From Candidatus Rifleibacteriota bacterium (GTDB lineage: Bacteria; Muiribacteriota; Ozemobacteria; Ozemobacterales; Ozemobacteraceae): a stretch of 16,822 bases of DNA. Location: positions 1 to 16,822 of the forward strand of contig JBNJGH010000076.1 of the NCBI GenBank assembly GCA_051747585.1. The letters are read 5' to 3'. This document shows, piece by piece, positions 2 through 13,905 of the stretch. The notes beneath the pieces are model-generated. The model made no database searches. It was not told the DNA's origin and worked only from the letters and a program-made list of their open reading frames with translations. Made by a program: the position numbers and the translations under genes. The stretch's first letter is position 1. The number at the start of each line of letters is the position of its first letter.

Positions 2-190
2 CCCTATTTTCTGCCGGCAATCTCGCCACATATTGACCGAATTATAAATGAGGTTTATTCTCAGGTAAGAGCTTTTTTGGAAAAGAATTCAGCAATTCTC
101 AAAAAGCTTGTAGATAAATTGCAACAAAACAGAACTTTAAAAAGAGAAGAAGTTGAAGAAATTGTTAATCAAGATATTCTAAAAAAATGA
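2..190 (+). CDS. 5'-truncated CDS: C-terminal helices of an FtsH-like / peptidase M41 domain protein
   Basis: Frame 2 is open from the window edge to TGA 188-190 and reads PYFLPAISPHIDRIINEVYSQVRAFLEKNSAILKKLVDKLQQNRTLKREEVEEIVNQDILKK*. This resembles the FtsH M41 C-terminal pattern (I..II.EAY..A..IL.EN...L..LA..LLE.ETL..EEI..I). The stop overlaps the next start (ATGA, 187-190). The HExxH and AAA motifs would lie outside the window. Confidence 0.75.
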   Translation, partial: PYFLPAISPHIDRIINEVYSQVRAFLEKNSAILKKLVDKLQQNRTLKREEVEEIVNQDILKK

Positions 191-3100
191 GCAAAAACAA
201 AGAAGAAGTATATTTAAAGATGCAAAAGCCGGCAGATATGCTGGCAGTGAATTTTCTTGCATCATCAGGCGACCTTAAGGGCAACTTCGTTCAAGAAGTT
301 GATCCGCCCTGGACTATCTGGTGGAAATCGGTAGAGGATCAATCTATATTGGGGCGCCTGGGCAGTCTCATTAAGAGCGGTCTTCCTCAACCTGAAGAGG
401 TCTGGGACGTGGGCCGGCCTAATGGCGAATGCCGCGAAATTTCCTGGCTTGATCTTTTTCGTAAGTCTGTAATCAAACCTGCTCAGAGTCGCAAGGTATC
501 TAATGAGGTAGTTTTATTAACGACCGATAAAGAAATTTTTTATATGGTAGTTAAAAACCATTTCATGCTACAGCAGGGTAAAATTGAGTTTGCTGCCTAT
601 AATGCAGAAGGCCGGGAATATTTTTTGTTGAAAATAAAAGAGCCTAGTTTGTGGGTTTTAAATACTATCAATAAGTCAGACTGGTTATGGTTCAACCTGG
701 TTCCCGGCCAATCAGGCATTTATATTGAAGCCGGTTATTATATTCATGACATCTCTTCTGAAAGCTGCTTTAACAAGTTTCAGATTGCCGAAAACGGCGT
801 TTTGCTTATTCAAAAAAGCGGCAGGCTTCTTTCTTTAAAGCCTAAGTGGAAAAAGGGAGAGAGCCTTATAAAAGTTGATTTTGCCGGTGCCGAAATCAAA
901 CAAGTTGATGCGCAAGAGAAAATTTCGCTCAAGCCTGTTCTGCGCGAAACAGAGCGCAGGCTGTTGCCCGTTCTCTGGCATGTGGAAAACAAAGAGCAGT
1001 TTAAAGCTATACTGCTGAATGAAAAGCTTGATCCATTCAAGCATTACCGACTTGCTATATGTAAAGACAACTCTATCTGGGTGTATGCTCGAAGCAGTAG
1101 GGCCGACCGTGGTCTGGCAACAATTTTGACCGATGCGTTCGCTGCATATACACAAACACAGCACCGGGTTTTTGTTCCCGCCGGAAAGCTGCTTGCACCG
1201 GGTTTGTCATCCGAAAGGTTACATGAAATTGTTGGTGGTTCAAACAGTGATTTTGTTATAATTACAGAGTGGGAAGAACAATTAAAGCCCTTGTTAATAA
1301 GGCAGGAGGATCTTCAGCCGGTTGAAGACTTTATAACCATCGAGGCAGAAAAGGCTGCAGAAAAAGCACAAACTATTAACCCGAGCTGGAAATTTGTTTT
1401 TCGAGATCTTAAAAAAAAAAAGCAGGTAATTGAGATTGATGTAGACGAACCGGCTTATGGAAAACTAAAAGCTACATCAGAAGACGGTCAGGTTGCCAGT
1501 GTCGACGAAATTTCCCGCCGGCGCAAACGTAGAAAAAAAACAATCGATCTCAACAATGTGCCCGAACTTGCTGCGTCAGAGACCTCATCTCTAAAGGTAG
1601 AACTCGACCAGATCGATGTTCAGCTCCTGCAGAATGTCGGCAATGCCCGGTTATGGGAGCAGAGAAGCGAAATATGCGTTAAAATGCGAATGAATGTTTC
1701 TGCGCTCGCTTCGCTTATGAACGCGGCAGTATTAAATAACGATATAGATATTCTGATCGATTGTTTGTTTGAGTTTTGTTCTTTAAGGTCTGAGTTCGCT
1801 GCTCTGAGACAAGAAAATATAACTGAAATAGAAAAAGGCCGGTTATTGGCTGCAATAAGAAACGAAAAAGTAAATGCAGAATTTTATTATGTGCTGATGC
1901 TTGCTTATGCTGCCAAATTTAATGATTTTGATATTTTTCAGCAGGCAGTTTCAGCCATGAAAACATCCTTCCCCGGAGAGGATCGCAAATTTTACGGCTT
2001 TAGCGAAATAAGATCTGCCTCTGGTGGTGGCATAAATGTTGAAAACAGAGTTGAGCTTTTGACCGAAAACGAGTTGCCCAGAATAAGAACTAACGTTAAA
2101 AATTTTATTCTTCAGCTGGGTTGCGGAAGAAATATATACTCGATGCATCTTGCTCGAAAGCAGCTCAATAAAATTCTTGCCTATCATTTGTCGCCGGGCA
2201 TTGCAGATCGAATAGTGTCAACAATCAGGTATACAACCAGTGACAACAGAGGCACCAACGAAAAAGCAACGGGCTTTTTTAATTTTTTCTGGAAAAAGAT
2301 TGAAAAATGGCCCAAAAGCATGGAAACCGGTGATAATAGGCCTGAGGTCAATCGCTGGTTGAGATTGATGACAATGGATAAAATTAGAGAAACCCCTTTA
2401 AAAGACTTTTTTACCGGTGATCTATATCGCCCGCCCTTCTATTTTATTCGTTCACAGGAAAATAAAAGAAATGGTCTGTTGCAGGTTAACTGGATCAAAG
2501 ATCTTTCAAGCGAAGAGTTCCCTGAAAAAAGCGATGGACGTTCAATAGCCAATGCAATCTATTACCGCTTTGCAGATAATGATGCAGACTGGGATAAATT
2601 TTTCAGGATGGCTTTGTCCAGTGGTGATCCAGAAGCTCTGGCAAAAGCGCAGAGATTGTTGCTGCTTATGGTTTCACAGTTTGGCCCTCATCCTGTATTC
2701 AAAAATTATATAATGCCCGCCAGGCTTGATCAGAAAAACGACAACGAGCAATGGGATATTTATAGCCTGACAATGTATTGTGACATGTATCGACTTTGTC
2801 TTGTTTATAAACAGCCGGTAGATGAGCAAAGATTGTTTAACCATTTGATTAATCGTATCCCGCAGCCACCTGAGGGCTGGGAAGACTTCAGCGGTTCGGC
2901 CGAGTGGATTATTTTATGCTTATTACTCTCAAGCTCGCCTAAGAGAAGATTCTTGCTCGATACTTTAATTTTAAGAGTAACCAGGTGGTTAGATCACGCT
3001 TTTCATTTTTATGATTACAAAAAGTTTGCTCAGTCTCTTACTATTTTGAGTTTTTTGAGTATAGGAATATTGGCTGATCTTGTTCCTGAAAAGCTCGAGC

Positions 3101-3210
3101 TGCATCAGTTGTTGGAAAAACGCAAAGTTATATGGATGGAACATGCTTTTAAAACTGCCGCCGCCGGTAAAGAAGCATTTGAACAGTGGCGGGAATCATG
3201 CGGATTTTAA
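187..3210 (+). CDS. 1007-aa hypothetical protein; probable large component of an FtsH-MoxR-vWA ternary system (N-terminal ~410-aa alpha/beta region, charged linker, helical C-terminal half)
   Basis: Long ORF coupled to the upstream gene by an ATGA overlap. Motifs FLLKIKEPSLWVL, IYIEAGY and VFVPAGKLLAP recall the large conserved subunit of FtsH ternary systems (tentatively fvmX7-like, from memory). No recognisable catalytic motif. Confidence 0.6.
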   Translation: MSKNKEEVYLKMQKPADMLAVNFLASSGDLKGNFVQEVDPPWTIWWKSVEDQSILGRLGSLIKSGLPQPEEVWDVGRPNGECREISWLDLFRKSVIKPAQSRKVSNEVVLLTTDKEIFYMVVKNHFMLQQGKIEFAAYNAEGREYFLLKIKEPSLWVLNTINKSDWLWFNLVPGQSGIYIEAGYYIHDISSESCFNKFQIAENGVLLIQKSGRLLSLKPKWKKGESLIKVDFAGAEIKQVDAQEKISLKPVLRETERRLLPVLWHVENKEQFKAILLNEKLDPFKHYRLAICKDNSIWVYARSSRADRGLATILTDAFAAYTQTQHRVFVPAGKLLAPGLSSERLHEIVGGSNSDFVIITEWEEQLKPLLIRQEDLQPVEDFITIEAEKAAEKAQTINPSWKFVFRDLKKKKQVIEIDVDEPAYGKLKATSEDGQVASVDEISRRRKRRKKTIDLNNVPELAASETSSLKVELDQIDVQLLQNVGNARLWEQRSEICVKMRMNVSALASLMNAAVLNNDIDILIDCLFEFCSLRSEFAALRQENITEIEKGRLLAAIRNEKVNAEFYYVLMLAYAAKFNDFDIFQQAVSAMKTSFPGEDRKFYGFSEIRSASGGGINVENRVELLTENELPRIRTNVKNFILQLGCGRNIYSMHLARKQLNKILAYHLSPGIADRIVSTIRYTTSDNRGTNEKATGFFNFFWKKIEKWPKSMETGDNRPEVNRWLRLMTMDKIRETPLKDFFTGDLYRPPFYFIRSQENKRNGLLQVNWIKDLSSEEFPEKSDGRSIANAIYYRFADNDADWDKFFRMALSSGDPEALAKAQRLLLLMVSQFGPHPVFKNYIMPARLDQKNDNEQWDIYSLTMYCDMYRLCLVYKQPVDEQRLFNHLINRIPQPPEGWEDFSGSAEWIILCLLLSSSPKRRFLLDTLILRVTRWLDHAFHFYDYKKFAQSLTILSFLSIGILADLVPEKLELHQLLEKRKVIWMEHAFKTAAAGKEAFEQWRESCGF

Positions 3211-3230
3211 ATTAATTTCGGAGTGATAAA

Positions 3231-4214
3231 ATGAATTATGAATTAAAAGATATGGATAAAATAAATGCCGCCAGGTCACGCATAGTTGATTACTATACCA
3301 GACTTAACGAGTATTTTCTTAAACGATCGGATTTGCTTAAGCTAATGATGGTTGCGGTTGCCTCGCAGGAACCGATGTTGTTTCTGGGGCGTCCGGGTAC
3401 GGCAAAGTCTTTGCTGGTTTCGGTTTTCTGTCAGGGCCTGGGCTTGCAACAAGATGACTACTTTGAATATATGCTGACTAAATTCACCGAGCCCAGTGAA
3501 ATCATGGGGCCGGTAGATATTGAACAGCTCAAAAGTGGTAAATATCTGAGAAAAGTTGAAGGCCATCTGCCCACCGCCAGAATTGCCTTTCTCGATGAAA
3601 TATTCAAGGCTAACTCAGCTATCCTCAATGTTTTATTGACCATAATCAATGAGCGCAAATATTATCAGGAAGGTAAGCCCTACCCGGTACCAATGGTCTG
3701 TATGTTTGCTGCCAGTAACGAAATACCCGATTTTGGCGAATTTGATGCGCTCAAAGACAGGTTTATTATAAAAGCAGAAACTTTACCGGTTAGAGATGCC
3801 TGTTTTCATGAGCTGATACGCTCAGGTATCAAATTCGAAACCAGAACCGCCAACCGGGAAATGCCCTGGAAATCTGATTGCAGTCTTGAAGATTTCCTTC
3901 TGGTGCATGACTACATGCTTTCTACTCTTCTGCCGGCAGCCATTGAAAAGGATGATGCGGTAATTCTGGGTGATGAGCGCATAACCACGGCGTTTAAAGC
4001 TTTGATTTCTGTGCTTGCAGATGAACTGAAGGTTGAAATAACTGATCGTAAGCTGATTAAACTCTATAAGCTTATTCTGACTCAGGCTTTTATATTTAAT
4101 GGCGGCAACGTTACCCGTGACGAGCTTAAAATACTCTGTTATTGCGGCAACAACTTTTCTGATGTGCGCAAAATTCGCAACTACATTGAAGAAAGACTTG
4201 CAAATCTAGATTAA
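3231..4214 (+). CDS. MoxR-family AAA+ ATPase, RavA-like (327 aa)
   Basis: Walker A GRPGTAKS (3387-3410), FEYMLTKFTEPSEIMGP, Walker B IAFLDEIFKANSAILNVLLTIINER, sensor-1 ASNE and Arg finger LKDRF. GGAG RBS at 3220-3223. Shorter than enterobacterial RavA. Confidence 0.93.
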   Translation: MNYELKDMDKINAARSRIVDYYTRLNEYFLKRSDLLKLMMVAVASQEPMLFLGRPGTAKSLLVSVFCQGLGLQQDDYFEYMLTKFTEPSEIMGPVDIEQLKSGKYLRKVEGHLPTARIAFLDEIFKANSAILNVLLTIINERKYYQEGKPYPVPMVCMFAASNEIPDFGEFDALKDRFIIKAETLPVRDACFHELIRSGIKFETRTANREMPWKSDCSLEDFLLVHDYMLSTLLPAAIEKDDAVILGDERITTAFKALISVLADELKVEITDRKLIKLYKLILTQAFIFNGGNVTRDELKILCYCGNNFSDVRKIRNYIEERLANLD

Positions 4215-4223
4215 AGGCCGATT

Positions 4224-5546
4224 ATGATACTACTTAAACCGGAACAGATTGCCAGCTGGTATAAGTTTTCGCTGGAATATTCAGGATATAAAGAATTATA
4301 TGGATTTGCCAGAGACTTGTGGAAAGACCTGGTGCGAAGAGGCAACCGAGCTGTGCCGCCAGGTTTTTTAGCCCGATTTATAGAACTATATCTCAGTGTA
4401 TCTGTTGGTGTGAAAAATGAAAATCATTCAACCGATCCGCTTGAAGATCAATATCTTGATCTAATACGAAAAGCTCCCGGTGCAGACAGACTCGAGGGCA
4501 TTTTTATCATTTCCGGTGCCGACAGAGACCCGGTTCTTGCTCAGCCTGTTCTGGTGCAACTTATTGACCGGTTGCCGGCTTTCAGACATAAGGCCCTTGT
4601 TTTTTCCGAGTCTGATTTTGAAAAATCATTTGAAGTAGAAAATCCTGCAAATGCAGGTTTCAATATGCAAGAAGTCTTGCAGCTTATTTATAAAAGTTCG
4701 ATTGAAGAATTTTCGCAAAAAAGCTTCAGTTTTGATGCAGATGACATTTTCGAAATCGGTCACCCGCAGTTGTTTTCAAGAGCAGCTGATCGACTGTTTT
4801 ACCGCCGCATGGTCAATGCGATGCATGGTTTGGGCACCTGGACCCGTAGTATTTTCACCCTTAAAGAAGAAAGCAGCTGGGTAGTTACCAAGTATGGTGA
4901 ACCGCAGGTGCTTCCGCTCGGTGGTTACGACGAGTTAACCAACAAAGGTACCATTTCTTCTATTGTGCCTTCTGAACTGGCATATATGGATGAAAGTATG
5001 GAATTTGATCTTTTTGACTACAAGTTTATCGAAAATCAGTTGATGTATTTCAAGCGTGATTCGGGAGCAGTATTTCGTATCAGGCGCGATATACGCATAA
5101 AACTTCGTTTGAGCGAATTTTTTGAACACGAAAAACACCTTGGTTTGCTTTTTGCCTGGATTTTTAATTTTGCCGGCAAACTTATAGAAACCCTGGTTAA
5201 AGATATGGTCAATGTTTTTATCGAACTTGAAGGCTATGTTCCATCATCGCTTAAAGATGCCTGCAGGTTTTTCGGTCACTTTCTTGATGAGAAAAAATTA
5301 TCTGACCGAATCTGCCTCAGAGCAGGGGACTTTACTACCTCTGAAACTATGGAACTCAGACCCGAAGCTCAAACATGGTTGTTTGCAGAAAAACCCGAAA
5401 ATAACTCTATCTTTATAGAGCTGCAATTTCCACAATCTGATGAATTTGCCGCCTATGAAAATACCGAGCAATATCGCATTCTTGGCGGACTTATAAATGA
5501 TTCAATCGAAAGGATGGTTAAACATGATCAGGGTGGCTGGAGTTGA
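4224..5546 (+). CDS. ViaA-like vWA-type MoxR partner with degenerate MIDAS (probably metal-inactive vWA), 440 aa
   Basis: Starts 9 nt after the MoxR gene. Contains GGYDELTNKGTISSIVPSELAYMD...DLFDYKFIENQLMYFKRD, resembling the ViaA-family pre-vWA motif (LLPxELA...FY.K..E.QLL.Y). The following strand IRIKLRLSEF lacks DxSxS. Confidence 0.7.
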   Translation: MILLKPEQIASWYKFSLEYSGYKELYGFARDLWKDLVRRGNRAVPPGFLARFIELYLSVSVGVKNENHSTDPLEDQYLDLIRKAPGADRLEGIFIISGADRDPVLAQPVLVQLIDRLPAFRHKALVFSESDFEKSFEVENPANAGFNMQEVLQLIYKSSIEEFSQKSFSFDADDIFEIGHPQLFSRAADRLFYRRMVNAMHGLGTWTRSIFTLKEESSWVVTKYGEPQVLPLGGYDELTNKGTISSIVPSELAYMDESMEFDLFDYKFIENQLMYFKRDSGAVFRIRRDIRIKLRLSEFFEHEKHLGLLFAWIFNFAGKLIETLVKDMVNVFIELEGYVPSSLKDACRFFGHFLDEKKLSDRICLRAGDFTTSETMELRPEAQTWLFAEKPENNSIFIELQFPQSDEFAAYENTEQYRILGGLINDSIERMVKHDQGGWS

Positions 5547-6120
5547 ACCCGTAACCGAAGTCGAGGGTCCTGCCCGTCGCTTCGCTTTATGGTTCCAGGG
5601 TTGCTCTATAAAATGTGAGCAATGTTGTAACCCGCAAATGCTTGATGGTTCAAGAGGACGTTTAATCGATCCTGCCGATCTGGCCAAAGATATCTATAAT
5701 GCTGATTCTGATGGGCTAACGGTTATGGGAGGCGAACCCCTGGATCAGTTGCAGGGATTAAATCAGTTGTTGGATGAATTGGCAAAGCTGGGCTATAATA
5801 AAGATATGATTCTTTTCTCGGGTTTTACCTGGCAGCAGATTGAAGCAGACAATGAAAAGAAAGAGACTGCAGCCAGATTTGACCTGCTGATTGCCGGTCC
5901 TTACATTGAGTCGATGTCCTCGCTTAAAAGAAAATGGATTGGTTCTGACAACCAGACTGTGCACTTTTTTTCAGACAAACTTGCCTGTCTTAAAAAAAGT
6001 TGGCCGACAGCTAAAAAAGAAGTCGAAATTCATATAGATGAAGATGGAATTACGTTAAATGGTTTTCCATTAGGCGATGACAGCGAATTCGAAAAATTTT
6101 CGTTTTTAGAGAAAGGTTAA
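5524..6120 (+). CDS. Radical SAM protein, NrdG/activase-like single 4Fe-4S cluster (198 aa)
   Basis: Motifs EGPARRFALWFQGCSIKCEQCCNP (CxxxCxxC at 5602-5625), GLTVMGGEPLDQ, FSGFT, DLLIAGPY and WIGSDNQ. ATG 5524 is preferred over 5497 because an AAGGA RBS precedes it and the homologous fold starts there. Confidence 0.9.
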   Translation: MIRVAGVEPVTEVEGPARRFALWFQGCSIKCEQCCNPQMLDGSRGRLIDPADLAKDIYNADSDGLTVMGGEPLDQLQGLNQLLDELAKLGYNKDMILFSGFTWQQIEADNEKKETAARFDLLIAGPYIESMSSLKRKWIGSDNQTVHFFSDKLACLKKSWPTAKKEVEIHIDEDGITLNGFPLGDDSEFEKFSFLEKG

Positions 6121-6121
6121 T

Positions 6122-6421
6122 ATGAAAAAATTTACTATTGATCTTGAATTTGATGAGGTTACGGGGGACAGTCGTATTCTGGTTGATTTTAACGATGACA
6201 GTATGACTGCGCTTGAAATTAATGAATCGATTCAAAGCGGTGAACTGCTCGAAGAGGTTGTCGAGCAGGCCGGAGAAGTGCTTGGCGAAAATATTGCCCG
6301 GCAGATTCGCGAAGGGCGTCTTAAAGCTCTATGTCTTGATAATCATCCTGAATTAAAAAATATCGAACAGGGAATTTTGATTAACAGTTCACAAAACACA
6401 AAACAGGAAATCGAACAGTGA
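6122..6421 (+). CDS. Small acidic hypothetical protein (99 aa), ternary-system-associated
   Basis: Starts 1 nt after the radical SAM stop, with AAAGG upstream. Its stop overlaps the next GTG start (GTGA). N-terminal beta-hairpin-like FTIDLEFDEVTGDSRILVD. Confidence 0.75.
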   Translation: MKKFTIDLEFDEVTGDSRILVDFNDDSMTALEINESIQSGELLEEVVEQAGEVLGENIARQIREGRLKALCLDNHPELKNIEQGILINSSQNTKQEIEQ

Positions 6422-7368
6422 AAATTCAGCTTTATCCCGAAGATCTGCTTCTTGAATATACTGAGAAGCTGCTCGAAGGAGAAACCACCAATCCTGATAT
6501 TAAATATTCGGGATATTTTGATGCTTTTCCGCCTGAAATCGATTTCAGCGAAGAATTTTGCGAAAAATGGCAACAGGTAATTGAACCTGTCGTTAAAAAA
6601 TTTATTTGTGACAGTTTTGCTTTTTATCCTTTTTTGTTTGAGTCTGATGGTTATACCAGAAAATATTCGGTAACAGATGTCGAGTTCTGGGAAAGCATAG
6701 ACATAAGTTTTTCCCAGCGAAGTGCTCTGAGATTGTATGAGCGCATGATCAGCGATAAAACGAAGCAATTGCCTGATTATATTCTTTCGCTCCCCGGAGA
6801 TGCTGTTTTCCTTTCAATAGCCACTACAAATTTCAACCTTTATTCTTTTCCCTGGCTGGAAAAAAATAAAGCAAACTGGGTTATTAAGGCTCTTTACGCA
6901 ACCTGGAACTTTCTTAACACAGATGAAATTCCATGGGAAGGCTTATTGGCCAAACCAAAAACTGTTGAGTTGCCTTTGCGAGGTTATCTTATAGATCGAG
7001 CGGCTGTCTATATGAGATGTGTAAATTATATTCTCGAAAGAATTGCTGAAAAACAGGTCACCCAAAGAAGTGAGCTGAAAAAAATTTCAGCGATGCCCGG
7101 CTGCGGTGTGCCTCTAAAGCTTTATCTTACTCGTAATCCCGATAAAATTATCAAGAGCTCGAATAAATTTATTAAAATGCTTGAAAAAGCGGTCTCGTAT
7201 TGGACAGCAGAAGGCATGTGCGCCTTAGATGACGACAGATTTATAAATGGGGTTTTTAATTCATCGGGAATAAAAGAGGAGCTTAAGGGGTTTGATGAAG
7301 TTGTTACAAAGATTTCTGATACAAATAGATTGGAGGAGAGAGTAGATGAGTCGGTCGTATTCAGTTAG
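6418..7368 (+). CDS. Hypothetical protein (316 aa), ternary-system-associated
   Basis: GTG start overlapping the upstream TGA, with an AGGA RBS upstream. Long ORF within the coupled operon. No recognised catalytic motif. Confidence 0.75.
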   Translation: MKIQLYPEDLLLEYTEKLLEGETTNPDIKYSGYFDAFPPEIDFSEEFCEKWQQVIEPVVKKFICDSFAFYPFLFESDGYTRKYSVTDVEFWESIDISFSQRSALRLYERMISDKTKQLPDYILSLPGDAVFLSIATTNFNLYSFPWLEKNKANWVIKALYATWNFLNTDEIPWEGLLAKPKTVELPLRGYLIDRAAVYMRCVNYILERIAEKQVTQRSELKKISAMPGCGVPLKLYLTRNPDKIIKSSNKFIKMLEKAVSYWTAEGMCALDDDRFINGVFNSSGIKEELKGFDEVVTKISDTNRLEERVDESVVFS

Positions 7369-7915
7369 TTTATCAGTTGGGGTAACTATACCGGAGGGTG
7401 AAAGACTTAAAGAAGGCCGTTTCGATATGGATTTTACTTTGCTTGAAATTCTTTCTCCCGATCGTATGAAAAGTATTTTAAAAGAGAAGTTGCTTGAAAA
7501 GGGTTTTGAAGAAACTCCGGAGGGTATGGCAATGCCTTTGAATGACGGGCAGCAGGCTGTGCTTGATCTGGATAGTATGGAAATGCAGGTTAAGGTTAAC
7601 ATGCCCGAAAAATGCAATATACTGGTTGAGGGCCTGCTGCTCGAAGAGTTTCAAGAATCTCTTGCCCGCGCCAGACAAGAGGGCAATGTAATGCAAAACC
7701 AGCGGGTTGCTCAGCAGATGGAAATCGAAAAAAATCGTGCTGTAAATGTTTTAAAACAGATTGCTCTAAAAGCTAAAAAAGAAGTTAACCTTGCGCTTAA
7801 AGAGACTTATAGAGAGGCAATAAAAGAAAAAGCTGCCTCTATGGGCAATGTCGAAAATGTTTCTGAATCAAAAGAAGGCAACACCTATCGCATACGCGTC
7901 GAAGTAAGCGCCTGA
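7346..7915 (+). CDS. Hypothetical protein (189 aa) with central coiled coil; last gene of the operon
   Basis: GGAGG RBS at 7332-7336 and a 23-nt overlap with the upstream gene. Motifs MSRSYSV, LLEILSPDRMKSILKEKLLEKGF and EAIKEKAASMGNV...YRIRVEV recall a conserved FtsH-ternary subunit (tentatively fvmX5-like). Confidence 0.75.
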   Translation: MSRSYSVSLSVGVTIPEGERLKEGRFDMDFTLLEILSPDRMKSILKEKLLEKGFEETPEGMAMPLNDGQQAVLDLDSMEMQVKVNMPEKCNILVEGLLLEEFQESLARARQEGNVMQNQRVAQQMEIEKNRAVNVLKQIALKAKKEVNLALKETYREAIKEKAASMGNVENVSESKEGNTYRIRVEVSA

Positions 7916-7922
7916 CAAACGC

Positions 7923-7965
7923 TCTGGTGGTTGAGCGTTAGTCGAAACCACCAGAACTGATTTTT
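7923..7965 (+). terminator. REP-like hairpin, possibly acting as intrinsic terminator of the + operon
   Basis: Perfect 10-bp stem TCTGGTGGTT (7923-7932) / AACCACCAGA (7946-7955), starting 7 nt after the stop and followed by ACTGA-TTTTT (T run 7961-7965). The loop is the reverse complement of TCGACTAACGCTC. Confidence 0.55.
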
Positions 7966-7971
7966 GTAACA

Positions 7972-8054
7972 TGGTCATTTTGACGGGCAGGATGCCCTGA
8001 TACTGGGTCGCATGAGGACACAAAGCGACCCAGTGAGACTAGGTTCAATGACCA
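7972..8054. repeat. Compound/nested palindrome: outer TGGTCATT...AATGACCA enclosing two inner hairpins
   Basis: Outer arms at 7972-7979 and 8047-8054. Inner hairpins are GGGCA-GGA-TGCCC (7985-7997) and ACTGGGTCGC-13nt-GCGACCCAGT (8002-8034). Confidence 0.7.
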
Positions 8055-8061
8055 ACCAATA

Positions 8062-8127
8062 GTCATTTCGACTACGCTCAATGACCAATGGATGGTTGCA
8101 GGGTCCCTTCGACTACGCTCAGGGACC
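8062..8127 (+). repeat. Two REP-like hairpins with identical loop TCGACTACGCTC
   Basis: GTCATT-TCGACTACGCTC-AATGAC (8062-8085) and GGTCCCT-TCGACTACGCTC-AGGGACC (8102-8127). Confidence 0.8.
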
Positions 8128-8135
8128 GCTTAGGG

Positions 8136-8201
8136 TGTCATTACGAGGAAAATGACAGCCTCAAATTGTCATTGCGAGGAGCGCAGCGACGAAGCAATCT
8201 C
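8136..8201 (+). repeat. TGTCATTGCGAGG-type palindromic element: one internally deleted copy and one left-half copy
   Basis: TGTCATT-ACGAGGAA-AATGACA (8136-8157) and TGTCATTGCGAGGAGCGCAGCGACGAAGCAATCTC (8167-8201). The latter resembles a widespread intergenic palindromic repeat similar to Rickettsia palindromic elements. Confidence 0.7.
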
Positions 8202-8306
8202 TGGTATGCTAAAAATTTAGTATATAAGAAAAAATACAAAAATGTCTTGAAACCAGCTAATATTGCTAAATAGATAATTGCTGTCAAAATAACGAAGCTT
8301 TAGTCT

Positions 8307-8774
8307 TCAGTGTTTGTGCTTATGCTTTTTGTTAAAGTAGGCAAGGTTGAATTCTTCAATTAATTTGCCCAGTTTTTTTGCATTTTCAAGCTCAGTTGTT
8401 TGTTTGCATTTCATGGCGGTTACCATAATTTTATGAACAAGTTCGAGCTTGTTTAGATAACCAGCTTTGTTTGTTTCTTTTTCCGAGGGTTTTAATCTCT
8501 GGCAGAGAAAATATTGGCTGCAGATGTCGATTATATCATCTGCATGAAAGTCTTTAGTTGTTGTCCAGCGAACGATCTGGTTGTAATTGGGTTGCCCGGC
8601 TTTGCCAAGTTCAATAATCTGTTTCATGCTTTTGCTTATTGTAGTTACATGCTCGTTCATAACTGAAAAACGAAGGTCATCGGTATAAATACCACATGGA
8701 ACCTGACAGTGAGCAAAAGCTTGAGACATACCTATAATTAGTAAAAAGGCAACGGTTAGAATTGTATTTTTCAT
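8307..8774 (-). CDS. sodN: Nickel superoxide dismutase precursor with Sec-type signal peptide
   Basis: Ni-hook HCQVPCGIY (HCxxPCGxY, 8711-8685) directly follows a 21-aa leader ending in AFA. Also NQIVRW..TKD.HA and KCKQT motifs. AGGAGG RBS at 8784-8779. Confidence 0.95.
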   Translation of the reverse strand: MKNTILTVAFLLIIGMSQAFAHCQVPCGIYTDDLRFSVMNEHVTTISKSMKQIIELGKAGQPNYNQIVRWTTTKDFHADDIIDICSQYFLCQRLKPSEKETNKAGYLNKLELVHKIMVTAMKCKQTTELENAKKLGKLIEEFNLAYFNKKHKHKH

Positions 8775-8823
8775 AAAGCCTCCTGAAAATTTTTTCTGTT
8801 AATCTTAATCTATTCGATTAGAA

Positions 8824-11800
8824 TTAAAGATCAAGACGTTCTATTAAACCGTAAACCGGAATTTCTACCCAATCGGGGCGGTTAGCTATTTCATAATTAA
8901 GTTCGTAGACGGCTTTTTCTATACTGAGAAAAGATACAATTCTTTTGAAGACTCTTTTGTTGTTTGGAACAGATACGCAGTCTTCGGTTTCAGTCAGGTA
9001 ACCATCGAGGAACTTTTGTCCTGCAAGCTTTTCCCATTCTTTAGTGTAGGTTTTCATTAAATCAAATGCTTCAGGGCGATCTTCTCTAACTTTTCGTCTT
9101 GCAGTTTCGGCAGCATAGCTGAAGGAACGCAAAATTCCCGCAACGTCGCGTAAGGGGCAGAACTTTGCAATTCTTTCTTTAAGTGGTCGTGCAGGCTCGC
9201 CTTCAAAATCTATTATTATAAAATCATTGGCAACCAGTAATATTTGTCCCAGATGCAGGTCACCGTGGTGTCTGGTTTTATACAAGCCAGACTTATCAGG
9301 AATAAGAGATCTTATTTTTTCAATTGCAGACTCTTTATTTTCTATGAGCTTGTTTGTTTTTTGTTTTAGCTCTTCATCAAAATCGCCTTGTCGCTTTTTC
9401 AGCACTTCAATTGTTTCTATAAAAGAGGTTTCAATTTTTTCTGACCAGTTTTGCCATTCTTCGGATGTAATAATTTCAGGCTTAAAGTCAGGGTCATCGG
9501 TGTCAGCTGCCAGAGCTTTGTGCATTTGTCCGACCCTCTTGCCTAGAGTTTGCATCATGGTAAGATACATATTGTGAGAAGCTTGCTCTTCTTTGCGCTC
9601 AGGCCGGTCAGGATTTTGTGCCGAGATAACGCAGCTGTCTTCGTATCTTTCAAGATAATCAAGAGTGAAGGTCCAGGCATCATTTTGATTGTCGATGAAT
9701 TCCTGCAAAATACCAAGGGTTATTACCTGGCCGTTTTCCTGTTCGAGCTCGATCGAGCCGGCAACTCGGGCTATATTGTTGAATTCAGGGGCTTCGGTAA
9801 GGTAGCGGCCCATTTGAAGCTCGGGATTCGCCCCTTCCTGAACCTGGCGGTAAATTTTGAAGATGAACTTTTCGCCAAAGAAAATCGATGTGTGGCTTTG
9901 TTCTATTATAGGTCGTCTGACTTCAAGATCAGAAAAGTCTTCTTCATCAGGAAGCAGGCCATTGCTGGTAAAGCTTAGTTTGCCGCTTTCCAGTATTACT
10001 TTTCTTTGCTGCTGCATAAATTTGAGCAAAGCCAGGCAGTATTCGTCACTTATCATTGAGTCTATAAGATAGCCGATCTGGTTTTGCTGTCTGGCTTTTG
10101 CAAGAATCCAGTCTGTTGGAATTTTCAGATCGTCTTCTTTTTCCCACATCAGGTGAATGGGAGTAAAGTATTTCTGGCTGGTGTTGTCGGTAAAATGCCA
10201 GGAGAAAACAGCCAGTAACCAATCGTGGCATTCTTGCTGAGAAATGGTCAGCGCAATGTCTGCTTCAATGTAAGCAACGTCTTTGCCTTTTCCGGCAAAC
10301 CATCTTTTGTTATTTGCATAAAGAATAAGAGCTTCATACAGTAATTTTTCCCGCTTTTTATTATTTAGAAGCTTGTGCAGAACTGCGAGACGCTTTTCTT
10401 CGGGATGGGTTTTAAAAACAAAGACCGGTAGTTCGGAATAGCTGAGAGAATCAGTTTTTTGCCAGGCCGGCCCGTCTGCTTCAAATGAAAGTTCGAAAAG
10501 ATAAAAGCCATAAGAAGACAGACTTAATTGATAGGGCTCCTTGGTTATAGTCGGGAAAGCGTTTTTGCTCAACAGCTCTACCGGTGTAAAACCTTTGAAA
10601 TCCTGAAGATCGATGTGTACGGGTTGTGCCGATCTTGATAAATTTGCTACACAGAGAATGTTGGTGTTTTCAAAACTTCTTATGTAAGCGATTACCTTTC
10701 GGTTTGCCGGTTTTATGAATTCAAAAGTGCCCTGACCAAAAGCATTAAAGTGTTTGCGCACCGAAATCATTTTTTTCATCCAGTTCAGCAGTGAAGCAGG
10801 GGTTCTACTTTGAGCCTCAACATTAACGGCATAAAAGCCTGTAACTGTGCTCATAACCGGTGGCAGAAAAAGGCGCTCAGGATCGGCTGTTGAAAAGCCG
10901 CCATTTCGGTCGGGGGTCCATTGCATCGGGGTTCTCATTCCGTTACGGTCACCGAGAAACATGTTGTCTCCCATGCCTATTTCGTCTCCGTAATAAACTA
11001 CCGGAGAACCTGGCATGGTAAACAGCAGAGCGTTTAAAAGTTCTATTTTGGCCCTGTTATATTCCATTAAAGGGGACAGTCTGCGTCTTATGCCTACGTT
11101 GATTCTGGCTCTCGGGTCTTTTGCATAAACCTGATACATGTAGTCTCGTTCTTTGCTTGTTACCATTTCAAGAGTCAATTCATCATGATTGCGCAAGAAT
11201 ATAGCCCATTGACAATTTTCCGGTATTTCAGGGGTTTGTTTCATTATTTCAACAATTGGAAACCTGTCTTCGAGGGCAAGTGACATATAAATGCGCGGCA
11301 TAAGCGGAAAATGAAATGCCATGTGGCATTCATCATTGTCACCGAAATATTCGGCAGCATCTTCAGGCCATTGGTTCGCCTCGGCGAGAAAAACTCTGTT
11401 TTTATACCTTTTATCAAGCTCTGCGCGAAACTTTTTTATAACGTCGTGGGTTTCCGGAAGATTTTCGCAGCTGGTGCCTTCGCGCTCACACAGATAGGGG
11501 ATGGCGTCGAGGCGAAGGCCGTCGACACCCATGTCAAGCCAGAAACGCATTACACCTATAAGTTTTTTTATTACCTGCGGATTATTAAAGTTCAAATCTG
11601 GCTGGTGAGAAAAAAACCTGTGCCAGTAGTAGGCCTTGGCTATCGGATCCCATGACCAGTTGGAAGTTTCGGTGTCGGTAAAAATTATACGCGCATCTGA
11701 GTATTTATTGTCATCATCATGCCAGACATAAAAATTCCTTTTACTCGATCCCTTTTTGGCTCTTCTTGCCTGTTGAAACCATGGGTGTGTATCAGAAGTG

Positions 11801-12141
11801 TGATTAATTACAAGCTCAATGATAACCCTTATATCTCGTTTATGTGCCTCACGCAGGAACTTTTTGAAATCTTTGAGGGTGCCGTAGTCGGGATGTACGT
11901 TTGTGTAGTCAGATATATCGTAACCATCGTCGCGAAAAGGAGAAGGGTAAAAAGGCAGAAGCCAGATGGCGTTAATTCCCAGATCTTGAATATAGTCGAG
12001 TTTTTGAGTCAGACCCGGGAAATCGCCAACGCCGTCGCCATTGCTGTCATAAAAAGCTTTTACATGAACTTCATATATTATTGCATTTTTATGCCAATGG
12101 GGATCATCGGGCATATTTAGTTTTCTGATTCTACTGTTCAA
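8824..12141 (-). CDS. treS: Trehalose synthase (maltose alpha-D-glucosyltransferase, GH13) fused to maltokinase (Mak/Pep2)
   Basis: GH13 motifs LVINHTSD, GLRLDAIPYL, LAEANQWP and FLRNHDELTLEMV. C-terminal kinase motifs EQSHTS, HGDLHLGQIL, IIDFEGEP and PLRDVAGILRSFSYA. TTG start with AAAGGAG RBS 8 nt upstream; alternative ATG at 12114. Confidence 0.95.
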   Translation of the reverse strand: MNSRIRKLNMPDDPHWHKNAIIYEVHVKAFYDSNGDGVGDFPGLTQKLDYIQDLGINAIWLLPFYPSPFRDDGYDISDYTNVHPDYGTLKDFKKFLREAHKRDIRVIIELVINHTSDTHPWFQQARRAKKGSSKRNFYVWHDDDNKYSDARIIFTDTETSNWSWDPIAKAYYWHRFFSHQPDLNFNNPQVIKKLIGVMRFWLDMGVDGLRLDAIPYLCEREGTSCENLPETHDVIKKFRAELDKRYKNRVFLAEANQWPEDAAEYFGDNDECHMAFHFPLMPRIYMSLALEDRFPIVEIMKQTPEIPENCQWAIFLRNHDELTLEMVTSKERDYMYQVYAKDPRARINVGIRRRLSPLMEYNRAKIELLNALLFTMPGSPVVYYGDEIGMGDNMFLGDRNGMRTPMQWTPDRNGGFSTADPERLFLPPVMSTVTGFYAVNVEAQSRTPASLLNWMKKMISVRKHFNAFGQGTFEFIKPANRKVIAYIRSFENTNILCVANLSRSAQPVHIDLQDFKGFTPVELLSKNAFPTITKEPYQLSLSSYGFYLFELSFEADGPAWQKTDSLSYSELPVFVFKTHPEEKRLAVLHKLLNNKKREKLLYEALILYANNKRWFAGKGKDVAYIEADIALTISQQECHDWLLAVFSWHFTDNTSQKYFTPIHLMWEKEDDLKIPTDWILAKARQQNQIGYLIDSMISDEYCLALLKFMQQQRKVILESGKLSFTSNGLLPDEEDFSDLEVRRPIIEQSHTSIFFGEKFIFKIYRQVQEGANPELQMGRYLTEAPEFNNIARVAGSIELEQENGQVITLGILQEFIDNQNDAWTFTLDYLERYEDSCVISAQNPDRPERKEEQASHNMYLTMMQTLGKRVGQMHKALAADTDDPDFKPEIITSEEWQNWSEKIETSFIETIEVLKKRQGDFDEELKQKTNKLIENKESAIEKIRSLIPDKSGLYKTRHHGDLHLGQILLVANDFIIIDFEGEPARPLKERIAKFCPLRDVAGILRSFSYAAETARRKVREDRPEAFDLMKTYTKEWEKLAGQKFLDGYLTETEDCVSVPNNKRVFKRIVSFLSIEKAVYELNYEIANRPDWVEIPVYGLIERLDL

Positions 12142-12184
12142 TTTTTGTACTCCTTTGCTGCGGCTTATAGCTTATGTTTCAATC

Positions 12185-13900
12185 TTAAAGTATTGCAATA
12201 GTTATGTTGTCTGCACCAGAAATTATTTCATTACCCAAACCAAAGTTATTGTTATTTTGTAACAGAACTTTGCATTTTTTTAACTCTGGTATCTGCAGTT
12301 TGATTTTTTGTTCTTTATTGCCGGTATTGGCAAAAATTACCAATGAACCGTTTCGATAAAAATAAAGATTTTCTTGAAGTTGCCTGAATTCAGGAGTTTG
12401 TTTTCTTAGATTTTTAAGATATTTTTTTCTTAGTTTAATCAACTGTTTATACCAGTCCAACATTTGTCGGTGCTGATCGCCTTCCTGTTCATTCCATTTA
12501 AGAATACTACTTTTAAATGTGTCAGGAGCCTGGGGATCGGGAACTTTTTTGTTCAGCGATGGATATTCCCTCCGGCGACCACGTTTTACCGCACGGGCAA
12601 GCTTTTCGTCGATATGGTCGGTAAAATACAAAAATGGAGTTGAGGCCGACCATTCTTCACCCTGAAACAACATGGGAACGAAAGGAGAAAGAAGCATAAG
12701 GGCGGCTGCCAGCTGGCATTGGCTGAAGCCGGTAAGATGGTTGAGTCGTTCCCCAAGACCTCGGTTTCCTACCTGGTCATGGTTCTGAATCGATACGACA
12801 AAATGTTCCGGCGCAAGGTCATTGGCCTTTCTGCCATGTTTTCTTTTTCGGGATGGAGAATAGACACCATCATAAACAAAATTGTCTTTAAGGCACTTAT
12901 TCAAATCTTTTGCGCCTTCGAAATCGAGGTAATAGTTTTGTTGCTCGCCGGTAAACATAACATGAATAGAATGATGAAAATCATCCATCCATTGGGCTGC
13001 CAGGCCGTAACCACCTTTTTCCCGGCTGTGAAGTAATCTTGGATCGTTAAGGTCTGATTCGGCAATCAAAAAATATTTTCGGCCTGTCTTTTCTTCCAGT
13101 TTTTCTACATTGGCTTGTAATTCTTCAAGAATATGAGTCGCGGAAAAGTCGTAAATTGCATGAACTGCATCGAGACGTAATCCATCAAAATTAAATTTTT
13201 CGAGCCAATGCAAGGCATTTTCAATTACAAATTCTCTTACCTGGTCACTATATTCCCAGTCAAAATTAACGGCTTCGCCCCAGGGGGTGTGGTAGCGACC
13301 GGAAAAATAATGACCATATATACCAAGATAATTTCCATCAGGCCCAAGATGATTATAAACAACATCTAAAATAATTCCCAGGTCTTTGCTATGACATGCA
13401 TCTACAAGTTTTTTGAGGTCGTCTGGCGTCCCGTATTCTTTGTGGGTAGCGAACAGGCTTACCCCGTCGTAACCCCAGCCATGGTGCCCGGGAAAAGCAG
13501 CAACAGGTAAAAGCTCTATGTGAGTTACGCCTAGATCTTTAAGATAATCGAGCTTGTCTATTATTGCGCTAAAGGTCCCTTCGGGAGTAAAGGTTCCAAT
13601 ATGTAGTTCGTATATTATGGCATCTTTAAGTTGACAGGCAGAACAATCTTTGTGCTGCCATTTAAAATTATTCGGCCATTTTTGAGAAAGCCCGTGAACC
13701 CCTTTGGGTTGAAATTCTGATCTGGGATCTGGAAACGGCCCATCGCCATCTATCTTGAAACCATAAGCCAGAGGCGATTTTGCAGCTTTAATTTCCTGTT
13801 GCCAGAAGCCATTTTTATCTGCTTTCATTGCAATCTCTTTATCGTTAACAACTAATGAAACTTTATTTGCTTTGGGTGCCCATACTTTAACTGTTTTCAT
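12185..13900 (-). CDS. treZ: Malto-oligosyltrehalose trehalohydrolase (GH13)
   Basis: Motifs VWAP (CBM48-like N-terminus), IYELHIGTFTPEGTF, WGYDGV, DVVYNHLGPDGNY, GLRLDAVHAI, LIAESD and QNHDQVGNR. ATG 13900 is preferred over TTG 13909 because of the AAAAGGA RBS spacing (13916-13910). Confidence 0.95.
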   Translation of the reverse strand: MKTVKVWAPKANKVSLVVNDKEIAMKADKNGFWQQEIKAAKSPLAYGFKIDGDGPFPDPRSEFQPKGVHGLSQKWPNNFKWQHKDCSACQLKDAIIYELHIGTFTPEGTFSAIIDKLDYLKDLGVTHIELLPVAAFPGHHGWGYDGVSLFATHKEYGTPDDLKKLVDACHSKDLGIILDVVYNHLGPDGNYLGIYGHYFSGRYHTPWGEAVNFDWEYSDQVREFVIENALHWLEKFNFDGLRLDAVHAIYDFSATHILEELQANVEKLEEKTGRKYFLIAESDLNDPRLLHSREKGGYGLAAQWMDDFHHSIHVMFTGEQQNYYLDFEGAKDLNKCLKDNFVYDGVYSPSRKRKHGRKANDLAPEHFVVSIQNHDQVGNRGLGERLNHLTGFSQCQLAAALMLLSPFVPMLFQGEEWSASTPFLYFTDHIDEKLARAVKRGRRREYPSLNKKVPDPQAPDTFKSSILKWNEQEGDQHRQMLDWYKQLIKLRKKYLKNLRKQTPEFRQLQENLYFYRNGSLVIFANTGNKEQKIKLQIPELKKCKVLLQNNNNFGLGNEIISGADNITIAIL

Positions 13901-13905
13901 TTCAT

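Follow-up and report, generated by a model that had tools for sequence, protein, structure and literature searches.

A rearranged and strongly diverged eight-gene FtsH-MoxR-vWA operon of the Ozemobacteraceae, a predicted FtsH ternary system

The window analysed in this work, i.e. the whole stretch of DNA under study, is the complete contig C76 (JBNJGH010000076.1; 16,822 nucleotides, nt) of a 4.1-Mb assembly of 330 contigs with a genome completeness of 93.6%. Its host belongs to Candidatus Rifleibacteriota / Ozemobacteraceae (Riflebacteria) and is uncultured; the matching DNA sequencing runs are sediment metagenomes and no RNA run is listed. On the plus strand the window carries an operon of eight genes encoding an FtsH-like protease, a protein of 1007 amino acids (aa), a MoxR-type ATPase, a divergent vWA protein, a radical S-adenosylmethionine (SAM) enzyme and three smaller proteins. 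An earlier note on this DNA, made from the sequence alone, had proposed that these genes form an FtsH-containing MoxR-vWA ternary conflict system. Here, the composition, the relatives and the genomic context of the operon are described and the possible functions of its products are weighed.

The eight-gene operon and its products

As taken from the list of open reading frames (ORFs), the genes lie at positions 2-190 (open at the 5' end), 187-3210, 3231-4214, 4224-5546, 5524-6120, 6122-6421, 6418-7368 and 7346-7915, with successive junctions of -4, +20, +9, -23, +1, -4 and -23 nt. The -23 junction between the vWA and the radical SAM gene requires that the latter starts at 5524, the list opening its frame at 5497. 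A start codon is found 11-12 residues ahead of a conserved VEGP in 20 out of 20 orthologous radical SAM frames, and several of these contain in-frame stops upstream of the equivalent Met/Val. Since these orthologues can begin only there, 5524 is the start of the gene. The last stop codon of the operon is followed by a terminator-like hairpin with a TTTTT run (7923-7965, plus strand; 10-bp stem 7923-7932/7946-7955, 13-nt loop, T run 7961-7965). It has a folding energy of -19.4 kcal/mol (z = -2.36), and 2 of 200 shuffled sequences fold equally well. A simple terminator scan had missed it because the loop is longer than 8 nt. Thus, the co-oriented genes, the overlaps and gaps between them and the terminal hairpin are present as the earlier note had given them, with identical junctions.

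Of the first gene (2-190, plus strand) the window contains only the final 62 codons. It encodes an FtsH-like AAA+/M41 protease predicted to be soluble, for which the C-terminal end of Peptidase_M41 gave E 7.3e-5, a value below the cut-off for these 62 residues alone. Contig C26 and the window share 99 identical nt, which form the 3' end of the former and the 5' end of the latter, and across this overlap the frame on C26 (663 codons, L013:10010-11998) and the window frame join in frame to a 693-aa FtsH-like protein with its stop at window position 190. The upstream sequence, the retrieval of which had been suggested by the earlier note, was found in this way and completes the first gene. The joined protein aligns end to end with a 694-aa congeneric orthologue at 79.4% identity. 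Its part on C26 matches AAA (PF00004, E 9.5e-41, residues 294-427) and Peptidase_M41 (E 1.6e-28), and the motifs are intact: Walker A GPPGTGKT at 298, the KWVG pore loop, the RPGRF arginine-finger region and HESGH (HExxH) at 522. The first ~285 residues have no Pfam family match, and comparison of residues 1-285 with the protein's own AAA module by hhalign yielded only a 49-column lid-like match with P 0.09. As the protein is without a hydrophobic segment it is predicted to be soluble. It shares the AAA module, the pore loop and the M41 HExxH peptidase with the housekeeping membrane FtsH but differs from it by the absence of transmembrane helices and a periplasmic domain and by its N-terminal region of ~285 aa without Pfam match. 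A canonical FtsH is present elsewhere in the genome, on contig C44 (M41 E 7e-76). No membrane or hydrophobic segment was found in any of the eight operon proteins.

The genome encodes a second soluble M41 protease on contig C271 (L014:1382-3430, plus strand), a 683-aa open frame with AAA, a ClpB_D2-small lid and Peptidase_M41 (E 2.3e-17). That the M41 fragment in the window could be part of this protease was considered and rejected, as C271 encodes a different, Clp-lid-containing protein. Its gene is divergent from a gene for a WYL-WCX-HTH regulator (L014:3-884, minus strand), and the pair looks like a separate, possibly defence-type module.

Upstream of the FtsH-like gene and on the same strand, C26 contains tatC, a 288-aa gene, a 418-aa gene and an MscS channel gene (L013:6164-9985, plus). 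The gaps in this run, up to the FtsH-like gene, amount to 6, 46, 11 and 24 nt; the 288-aa and 418-aa genes have no family match. In view of these short gaps the transcription unit may exceed eight genes, and the operon may be transcribed from a promoter upstream of tatC.

The 1007-aa protein (187-3210, plus strand) consists of an N-terminal fvmX7 domain of ~400 aa, a linker and helical repeats. The fvmX7 family (PF20005) matched the window protein only weakly (E 0.15), and it matched a split orthologue (L025:4762-5985) with 30.8 bits vs a cut-off of 24. In an hhalign comparison the N-terminal part aligned with seven canonical fvmX7 proteins with Prob 97.7 and E 2.2e-12 over 295 columns. The AlphaFold2 (AF2) model of the protein (pLDDT 76.6) starts with alpha/beta modules, which extend to residue 396; the basic linker that follows (397-452) is disordered, and residues 463-1007 are all-helical. 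In six relatives' genomes of several genera, two genes (~410 aa and ~600 aa) take the place of this one; such split genes were seen in loci L021-L025, L043, L047 and L051, with the break at about residue 410, near the start of the disordered linker. A PDB sequence search with the 1007-aa protein found nothing. The best Foldseek matches (E 0.03) were TPR and proteasome Rpn1/Rpn2 solenoids, i.e. generic helical-repeat matches, and the VIA fold search gave short TPR or four-helix pieces (best Z 8.7) with the N-terminal half barely covered.

The third gene (3231-4214, plus strand) encodes a MoxR-type AAA+ ATPase of 327 aa (bpMoxR PF20030, E 1.4e-54; AAA_5, E 4.4e-22) with the P-loop GRPGTAKS, which is of the GxxxTAKS type, and the Walker B residues DE. 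The fourth (4224-5546, plus strand) encodes a divergent vWA protein of 440 aa matching the ivWA family (PF19997, E 5.7e-13, 49.1 bits vs a cut-off of 35). This match covers residues 231-297 on profile positions 1-71 of 253 only, and is preceded by an N-terminal extension of ~230 aa. By eye, no DxSxS MIDAS motif was seen in an alignment of 12 orthologues. The two proteins had been called RavA-like and ViaA-like. These names hold at the level of the superfamily: as in the RavA-ViaA system of E. coli, a MoxR-class AAA+ ATPase gene adjoins a vWA-type gene, and the RavA model NF010054 aligns over the ATPase core (residues 15-184 on model positions 8-177 of 498, E 1.3e-37). They do not hold beyond it, the RavA model scoring 130 bits vs a cut-off of 681. 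The MoxR protein with its 327 aa vs 498 model positions is missing the C-terminal parts of RavA, its vWA partner matches ivWA and not ViaA, and six further genes are obligate companions of the pair.

The fifth gene (5524-6120, plus strand) encodes a radical SAM enzyme of 198 aa and of the glycyl-radical-activase type (Fer4_12, E 3.6e-28), in which the CxxxCxxC (C27, C31, C34) and GGEP motifs are intact. The nearest NCBIfam models are NrdG, the pyruvate formate-lyase (PFL) activase and other glycyl-radical activases, all of them below their cut-offs; the NrdG model TIGR02491 gave E 5.5e-25 and 88.1 bits vs a cut-off of 126.1. The closest solved relative is the PFL activating enzyme PFL-AE (8fo0/3c8f; profile E 1.9e-13), with which the stretch VEGPxRRF..FQGCSxxCxxCxN can be aligned over the loop and the CxxxCxxC motif. 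In PFL-AE, contact with the substrate's glycine loop is made by the (D/E)GxGxR loop. The operon enzyme resembles PFL-AE and NrdG in its size of ~200 aa, in the N-terminal CxxxCxxC following a (D/E)GPGxR-type loop and in the GGE SAM motif. It differs from them in that it misses all equivalog cut-offs and in that its gene is not beside nrdD. The class III reductase NrdD is encoded on contig C137 with its own activase-like frame directly downstream. Therefore, the possibility that the operon enzyme is the housekeeping NrdG was rejected. A protein with a Gly_radical domain was not found in the genome, which is 93.6% complete, and neither SPASM nor another peptide-maturase domain was found in the enzyme with Pfam, NCBIfam and the profile search.

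The sixth gene (6122-6421, plus strand) encodes p99, an acidic protein of 99 aa that is a divergent fvmX3-analog according to hhalign. It comprises a structured part of ~75 aa ending in GxIxxxCxD (G65, C71, D73) and a variable polar tail after the CxD; invariant in its family are G40, G55, C71 and D73. The C-terminal Gln of the tail is restricted to the Riflebacteria clade. A profile search returned 19 cluster representatives at E ≤ 0.001 among 1.84 billion, and P0031 and P0033 were dropped from the family after reading as internally repetitive long proteins. When the p99 family was compared with the fvmX3-analog family by hhalign (alignments A8 and A11), a match with Prob 82.8 and E 9.3e-6 over 60 columns was obtained (p99 1-69 / fvmX3-analog 1-61). 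The Pfam model of the latter (PF20002) gave E 0.059 and 13.9 bits vs a cut-off of 27 on p99, and in the Atlas search an fvmX3-analog cluster held rank 12 with a score of 0.79. G65 of p99 aligns with the nearly invariant G56 of the fvmX3-analogs, the only shared glycine, and apart from it no residue outside the fold core is common to both. A PDB sequence search with p99 gave nothing below E 0.15. Prediction of a complex of the radical SAM enzyme (with SAM and 4Fe-4S) and p99 gave ipSAE values of 0.00 and 0.00, which is uninformative either way.

The seventh gene (6418-7368, plus strand, GTG start) encodes p316, a 316-aa protein of no family in the position of fvmX6. Pfam, NCBIfam and PADLOC gave no match, and none of 6 orthologues matches Pfam at E ≤ 0.05. 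In 5.8 billion clusters 15 homologues were found, the window's own included, and the family has no invariant Gly or Cys. The AF2 model has high confidence (pLDDT 90.2, pTM 0.87). Foldseek found no match to it at E ≤ 0.001, and the VIA fold search returned generic syntaxin/spectrin-like three-helix bundles (best Z 7.9), within the noise for helical models. The Atlas search found only unnamed clusters (score 0.77) and the PDB sequence search nothing below E 0.5. A simple split of fvmX6 into p99 and p316 was also considered and rejected, as hhalign of p99 against fvmX6 gave nothing. The last gene (7346-7915, plus strand) encodes a 189-aa fvmX5 protein (PF20003, E 5.6e-19, 69.2 bits vs a cut-off of 24.2, positions 1-187 of 187). 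Thus, among the four proteins which the earlier note had left without assignment, one is fvmX5 outright and two were assigned by profile comparison (fvmX7 and fvmX3-analog), while p316 is still without a family. In agreement with the earlier note, no nuclease, TIR or other known effector was found in the eight proteins in the Pfam and PADLOC scans.

Correspondence to the canonical FtsH ternary systems

The FtsH ternary system in its 'simpler' radical-SAM subtype was described as vWA-MoxR subsystem 3 in a computational prediction by Kaur, Burroughs, Iyer and Aravind (eLife 2020, PMC7159879). According to sections 21, 22 and 24 of that paper, the subtype combines a vWA protein extended at its N-terminus with a MoxR of the GxxxTAKS type, and both its radical SAM enzyme and its small protein are stand-alone proteins. 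Section 22 describes this P-loop variant as a frequent one for FtsH- and beta-propeller-type systems. The radical SAM component that the earlier note had mentioned is indeed given in section 21. The vWA protein is highly divergent, possibly without the metal-binding aspartates, and is fused to a large all-alpha N-terminal domain; the FtsH component has an active AAA+ domain and a second, N-terminal, catalytically inactive FtsH-type AAA+ domain (PMC7159879). The systems are reported as enriched in bacteria with a multicellular stage, and Riflebacteria are not among the phyla named in the text (PMC7159879). The hosts of the loci studied here are represented by metagenome-assembled genomes of uncultured bacteria.

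Canonical operons were collected in a metagenome scan with the radical SAM alignment, from which 324 relatives were obtained and 79 loci kept; the 36 loci of at least 5 kb were examined with our own profiles. Five of them have the Riflebacteria order, 21 combine the radical SAM gene with fvmX5, and 10 contain the enzyme without those neighbours in the available stretch. In 20 of the 21 loci fvmX5 lies ~1 kb downstream of the radical SAM gene on the same strand, L087 being divergent. FtsH follows fvmX5 in the 19 loci whose contig extends there, and is itself followed by a ~1100-aa gene and MoxR where these are reached. Typing with Pfam identified the gene after the radical SAM gene as fvmX6 (4/4) and the ~1100-aa gene as fvmX7 (3/3). 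Directly after FtsH, 14 canonical loci have a gene for 83-89 aa, and all 14 products match the fvmX3-analog family PF20002. The radical SAM enzyme of the window is 33-40% identical to those heading the canonical operons.

The canonical order therefore reads rSAM-X6-X5-FtsH-X3a-X7-MoxR and the order in the window FtsH-X7-MoxR-vWA-rSAM-X3a-X6?-X5 (rSAM, radical SAM gene; X3a, fvmX3-analog; X5 to X7, fvmX5 to fvmX7). We infer that the canonical vWA gene sits after MoxR, the contigs of those loci ending before it. Compared with the canonical form, the front and back blocks are swapped in the window operon, and the small gene lies behind the radical SAM gene instead of behind FtsH. Its product p99 is without EHExxH and has a CxDHHPE and the Gln-ending tail instead, and neither p316 nor the last 550 aa of the 1007-aa protein can be recognised by sequence. 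With respect to its size and its place next to the radical SAM block p316 fits the fvmX6 of canonical operons, and it is probably fvmX6, as placed by position with homology hinted.

In spite of these differences seven of the eight families are recognised in the window operon and the eighth by position only. The operon contains the GxxxTAKS MoxR, the divergent vWA protein, an FtsH with an active AAA+ domain, the stand-alone radical SAM enzyme, a small protein of the fvmX3-analog type, fvmX5 and fvmX7. The earlier assignment to the FtsH-containing MoxR-vWA ternary systems is thus borne out by the Pfam families ivWA, fvmX5, bpMoxR and fvmX7 and by the profile match between p99 and the fvmX3-analogs. 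Judged by its sequences, the operon very probably is a member of the FtsH ternary family. It is a rearranged, strongly diverged but complete copy of a predicted system and not a new system. What is particular here is the rearranged order, the relocated and remodelled fvmX3-analog, the two components beyond sequence recognition and the clear pattern of vertical descent that is seen in one family.

Several observations on the metagenome loci may be added. At L087 (57-9603) an fvmX5-FtsH-...-MoxR operon and the radical SAM gene point away from each other, which represents a third arrangement of the same genes. The fvmX3-analogs (L070-L136) share P-x-E-H-E-x-x-H without exception. This contains a zincin-like HExxH, although proteins of this size are much too short for a peptidase. 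Of the 14 proteins, 7 end in Gly. Radical SAM relatives (33-37%) without fvmX5 or FtsH in the available stretch were seen at L083, L089, L100, L104, L111, L123, L125, L126, L128 and L133, L089 being cut ~1 kb after the radical SAM gene; the enzyme family also occurs in other contexts.

A 2023 Science paper mentions VMAP-type ternary modules near CRISPR loci. A MoxR-vWA-beta-propeller pathway, Esr, is reported in a preprint (bioRxiv 10.64898/2026.09.08.750141) to be one that an oral actinobacterium requires in order to respond to epibionts. As far as described there, this pathway shares with the window operon the MoxR-vWA core and its origin in the same catalogue, and the best Pfam model for the window MoxR is that of the beta-propeller systems (bpMoxR). 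The surface beta-propeller sensors, the kinase/phosphatase pair and the FHA proteins of the Esr pathway, which drives Esx secretion, have no equivalent in the window operon, whereas the FtsH and the radical SAM enzyme of the latter are not part of the Esr pathway in that account.

Occurrence and conservation in the Ozemobacteraceae

The 1007-aa protein is present in 15 of 24 other genomes of the family and in none of 16 genomes of other families of the phylum. With the ivWA profile the operon, which appears to be confined to this family, was detected in 29 of 51 Ozemobacteraceae genomes, including 18 of the 27 of high quality, in 9 of 15 genera and with one copy each. One of the apparent absences (G006) is due to a contig end, as this genome has the 1007-aa gene and a MoxR fragment. 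The operon is thus not universal in the family, being absent from 22 of the 51 genomes.

The order of the genes is identical throughout the 13 loci of relatives and the 27 loci of species genomes, two sets that have 12 contigs in common. Among the 27 loci, 17 are complete with eight genes, and in the other 10 the operon is truncated by a contig end. The homologues thus co-occur in a constant order. Since the same order is found in every related locus examined, the eight-gene set is not a chance arrangement.

The degree of conservation differs between the subunits. Identities to the window proteins across the 27 loci are highest for MoxR (69-88%) and FtsH (62-80%), followed by ivWA (38-73%), the 1007-aa protein (33-68%), the radical SAM enzyme (40-58%), p99 (34-74%), fvmX5 (30-57%) and p316 (27-45%). 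The corresponding values of neighbouring genes are 78% for TreS, 63-67% for MscS and 47-57% for TatC. The core of the operon is conserved and its periphery is fast-evolving.

Genes flanking the operon recur as well. In the genus to which the window belongs, and likewise in one complete chromosome from a second genus, the 418-aa and MscS genes are inserted between tatC and FtsH, and a nickel superoxide dismutase (NiSOD) gene lies downstream of the operon in two other genera. Altogether, 61 flanking ORFs of 8 loci comprise ferredoxin-type, DUF362, TatC, amidohydrolase, chemotaxis, TPR and sugar-nucleotide genes. This context is unlike the usual mobile defence island.

Outside the records labelled as Riflebacteria, the only related loci are L054, labelled Sericytochromatia, and one labelled Erysipelotrichia. 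The former (1672 bases) carries the end of a MoxR gene (69%) and the start of an ivWA gene (38%) in the same order.

Possible function and neighbouring genes

With modest confidence we favour the reading that the products of the rearranged eight-gene FtsH-MoxR-vWA ternary system act as a cytoplasmic, ATP-driven protease machine. This prediction is based on the intact catalytic motifs of the three enzymes, the absence of membrane segments, the strict co-occurrence of the genes and the combination of a conserved core with a fast periphery. MoxR and the vWA protein would be a chaperone/co-chaperone pair that assembles or remodels a complex on the fvmX7 scaffold, and the fast-evolving subunits (p316, fvmX5 and the helical half of the fvmX7 protein) may supply the recognition surfaces for a trigger. 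Within this complex a protein partner would lose a hydrogen to the activase-like radical SAM enzyme or be modified by it in another way, the best candidates for this partner being p99 (G65 or C71) or p316. The soluble FtsH would form the output by unfolding or cutting a target or p99 itself. The trigger may be an internal signal or, following the conflict interpretation by Kaur et al., an invader. An anti-invader role of the system is conceivable, and we put it forward only tentatively.

A number of findings weigh against this interpretation. With respect to the components, sequence comparison by Pfam and hhalign did not bring out the inactive N-terminal AAA domain by which the FtsH component is defined, and the C-terminal helical half of the 1007-aa protein (~550 aa) is unlike its canonical counterpart, without hhalign similarity to it. 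The P-x-EHExxH motif, invariant in 14 of 14 fvmX3-analogs, is missing from p99, which has E-I-N-E-x-I at those positions; because of this loss p99 may not do the job of the fvmX3-analog. The comparison of p316 with fvmX6 by hhalign gave only P 0.063 (143 collinear columns), and the best hmmsearch values of E 0.018 and 0.022 were obtained in databases of only 18 and 20 sequences, the weak matches overlapping in region in both directions. The substrates considered for the radical SAM enzyme are conjectural. With respect to defence, PADLOC-DB 2.0.0 gave no match for the eight proteins other than chance-level values of E 0.001-0.006 (PrimPol, RtcR, ZorB) for 3 of the 8, and a literature search found no experimental paper on FtsH ternary systems, the phrase occurring only in Kaur et al. 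2020 among the papers searched. The operon is present genus by genus (14/15 genomes in g5, 4/4 in g7 and 4/5 in g1 vs 0/7 in both g4 and g12), a distribution which fits vertical descent with losses as well as, or better than, horizontal spread. It occupies one chromosomal site: tatC is at most 2 kb upstream of FtsH in 9 of the 27 loci, and several genera share the Fer4/DUF362 genes on the upstream side and the ~620-aa/amidohydrolase genes on the downstream side. The 61 flanking ORFs of the 8 loci include neither an integrase or a transposase nor a member of a known defence family. Thus, the claim of the earlier note that the operon is a defence system is not sustained by the PADLOC search or by the fixed, single-copy and genus-wise occurrence of the locus, and for the sensor complex proposed there, signalling through the protease and the radical enzyme, no computed support was obtained.

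The findings on the chromosomal context also bear on the main alternative, in which the operon would not be an immune system but a module specific to the lineage that serves housekeeping or regulatory proteolysis. MoxR/vWA would then mature or load a client, FtsH would turn over an endogenous protein, and the radical SAM enzyme would activate or mark the client under anoxia. The fixed site with neighbours conserved across genera and free of mobile or defence genes, the single copy and the genus-coherent presence are all in line with such a module, as is the possible co-transcription with tatC and MscS. Moreover, MoxR-vWA pairs are established chaperone modules according to section 8 of PMC7159879, and the identities of MoxR (up to 88%) and FtsH (up to 80%) exceed those of the neighbouring tatC. 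On the other hand, the operon is missing from 22 of the 51 family genomes, among them two genera of seven genomes each, and, in the search with the 1007-aa protein, from all 16 genomes of other families, arguing against an essential function; because it is missing from whole genera (g4 and g12), the operon is dispensable. The peripheral subunits diverge faster than the neighbouring genes, most of all p316, as expected of conflict genes, and unrelated lineages have the same set of genes with no tatC close by. On balance we regard a housekeeping module as rather unlikely. A further reading, in which the operon serves Tat export by checking or degrading folded, cofactor-bearing Tat substrates, would account for the proximity of tatC, which also lies upstream on the same strand in the window's genome, and for the Fer4 and DUF362 genes divergently beside the operon. 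Adjacency in one bacterial family is, however, expected from vertical inheritance alone, all eight proteins are without membrane segments, and 13 metagenome loci, some of them non-canonical, have differing genes ahead of the radical SAM gene, mostly on the opposite strand. This reading appears extremely improbable.

Two further proposals centre on p99. Following an idea put forward by Kaur et al., the second half of the operon could be a peptide-maturation unit: the radical SAM enzyme would modify p99, and cleavage by the M41 protease would set free the variable tail at the C-terminus of p99, which would amplify the response as a toxin or a signal peptide. The architecture of p99, a conserved N-terminal part with a variable polar tail after the invariant CxD, would suit such a precursor. 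However, the enzyme is of the glycyl-radical-activase type, without SPASM or another peptide-maturase domain, and the operon encodes no exporter and no membrane protein. In the canonical operons, moreover, the small gene follows FtsH, and fvmX6, not the small gene, adjoins the radical SAM gene; p99 and the fvmX3-analogs also have just the one glycine in common outside the fold core. Peptide maturation is therefore considered improbable. It is likewise quite improbable, and speculative, that the protease is radical-gated, the radical SAM enzyme placing a backbone radical or a covalent mark on p99 (G65 or C71). The marked p99, threaded by its disordered tail, would then license or block the soluble FtsH. 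If true, this would be a switch of an AAA+ protease without described precedent and, in Riflebacteria, a vertically inherited, oxygen-sensitive cell-fate switch and not a mobile defence gene set.

The FtsH ternary systems are among the largest predicted bacterial conflict machines. The persistence of the full eight-family set in spite of a reshuffled order and of three members diverged beyond recognition by Pfam argues that all eight proteins act together. That an fvmX3-analog can lose its sole invariant motif (EHExxH) and relocate beside the radical SAM gene provides a natural variant for probing the role of this protein. In one family the operon has the traits of stably inherited chromosomal genes, which also weighs on whether the label 'conflict system' is right. 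Being compact, cytoplasmic and without membrane parts, the eight-protein set suits reconstitution, and the operon should be useful mainly as such a compact, membrane-free set for a first biochemical test.

Downstream of the operon, at window positions 7916-8306, there are short dispersed repeats, i.e. REP-like elements. A 13-mer at 8187 has 113 copies in 78 contigs of the genome, and a 14-mer found at 8067 and 8108 has 36 copies genome-wide. The minus strand of the following stretch (8307-16566) carries the NiSOD gene (8307-8774) and then a trehalose cluster consisting of a TreS-maltokinase fusion (8824-12141), TreZ (12185-13909) and TreY (13906-16566).

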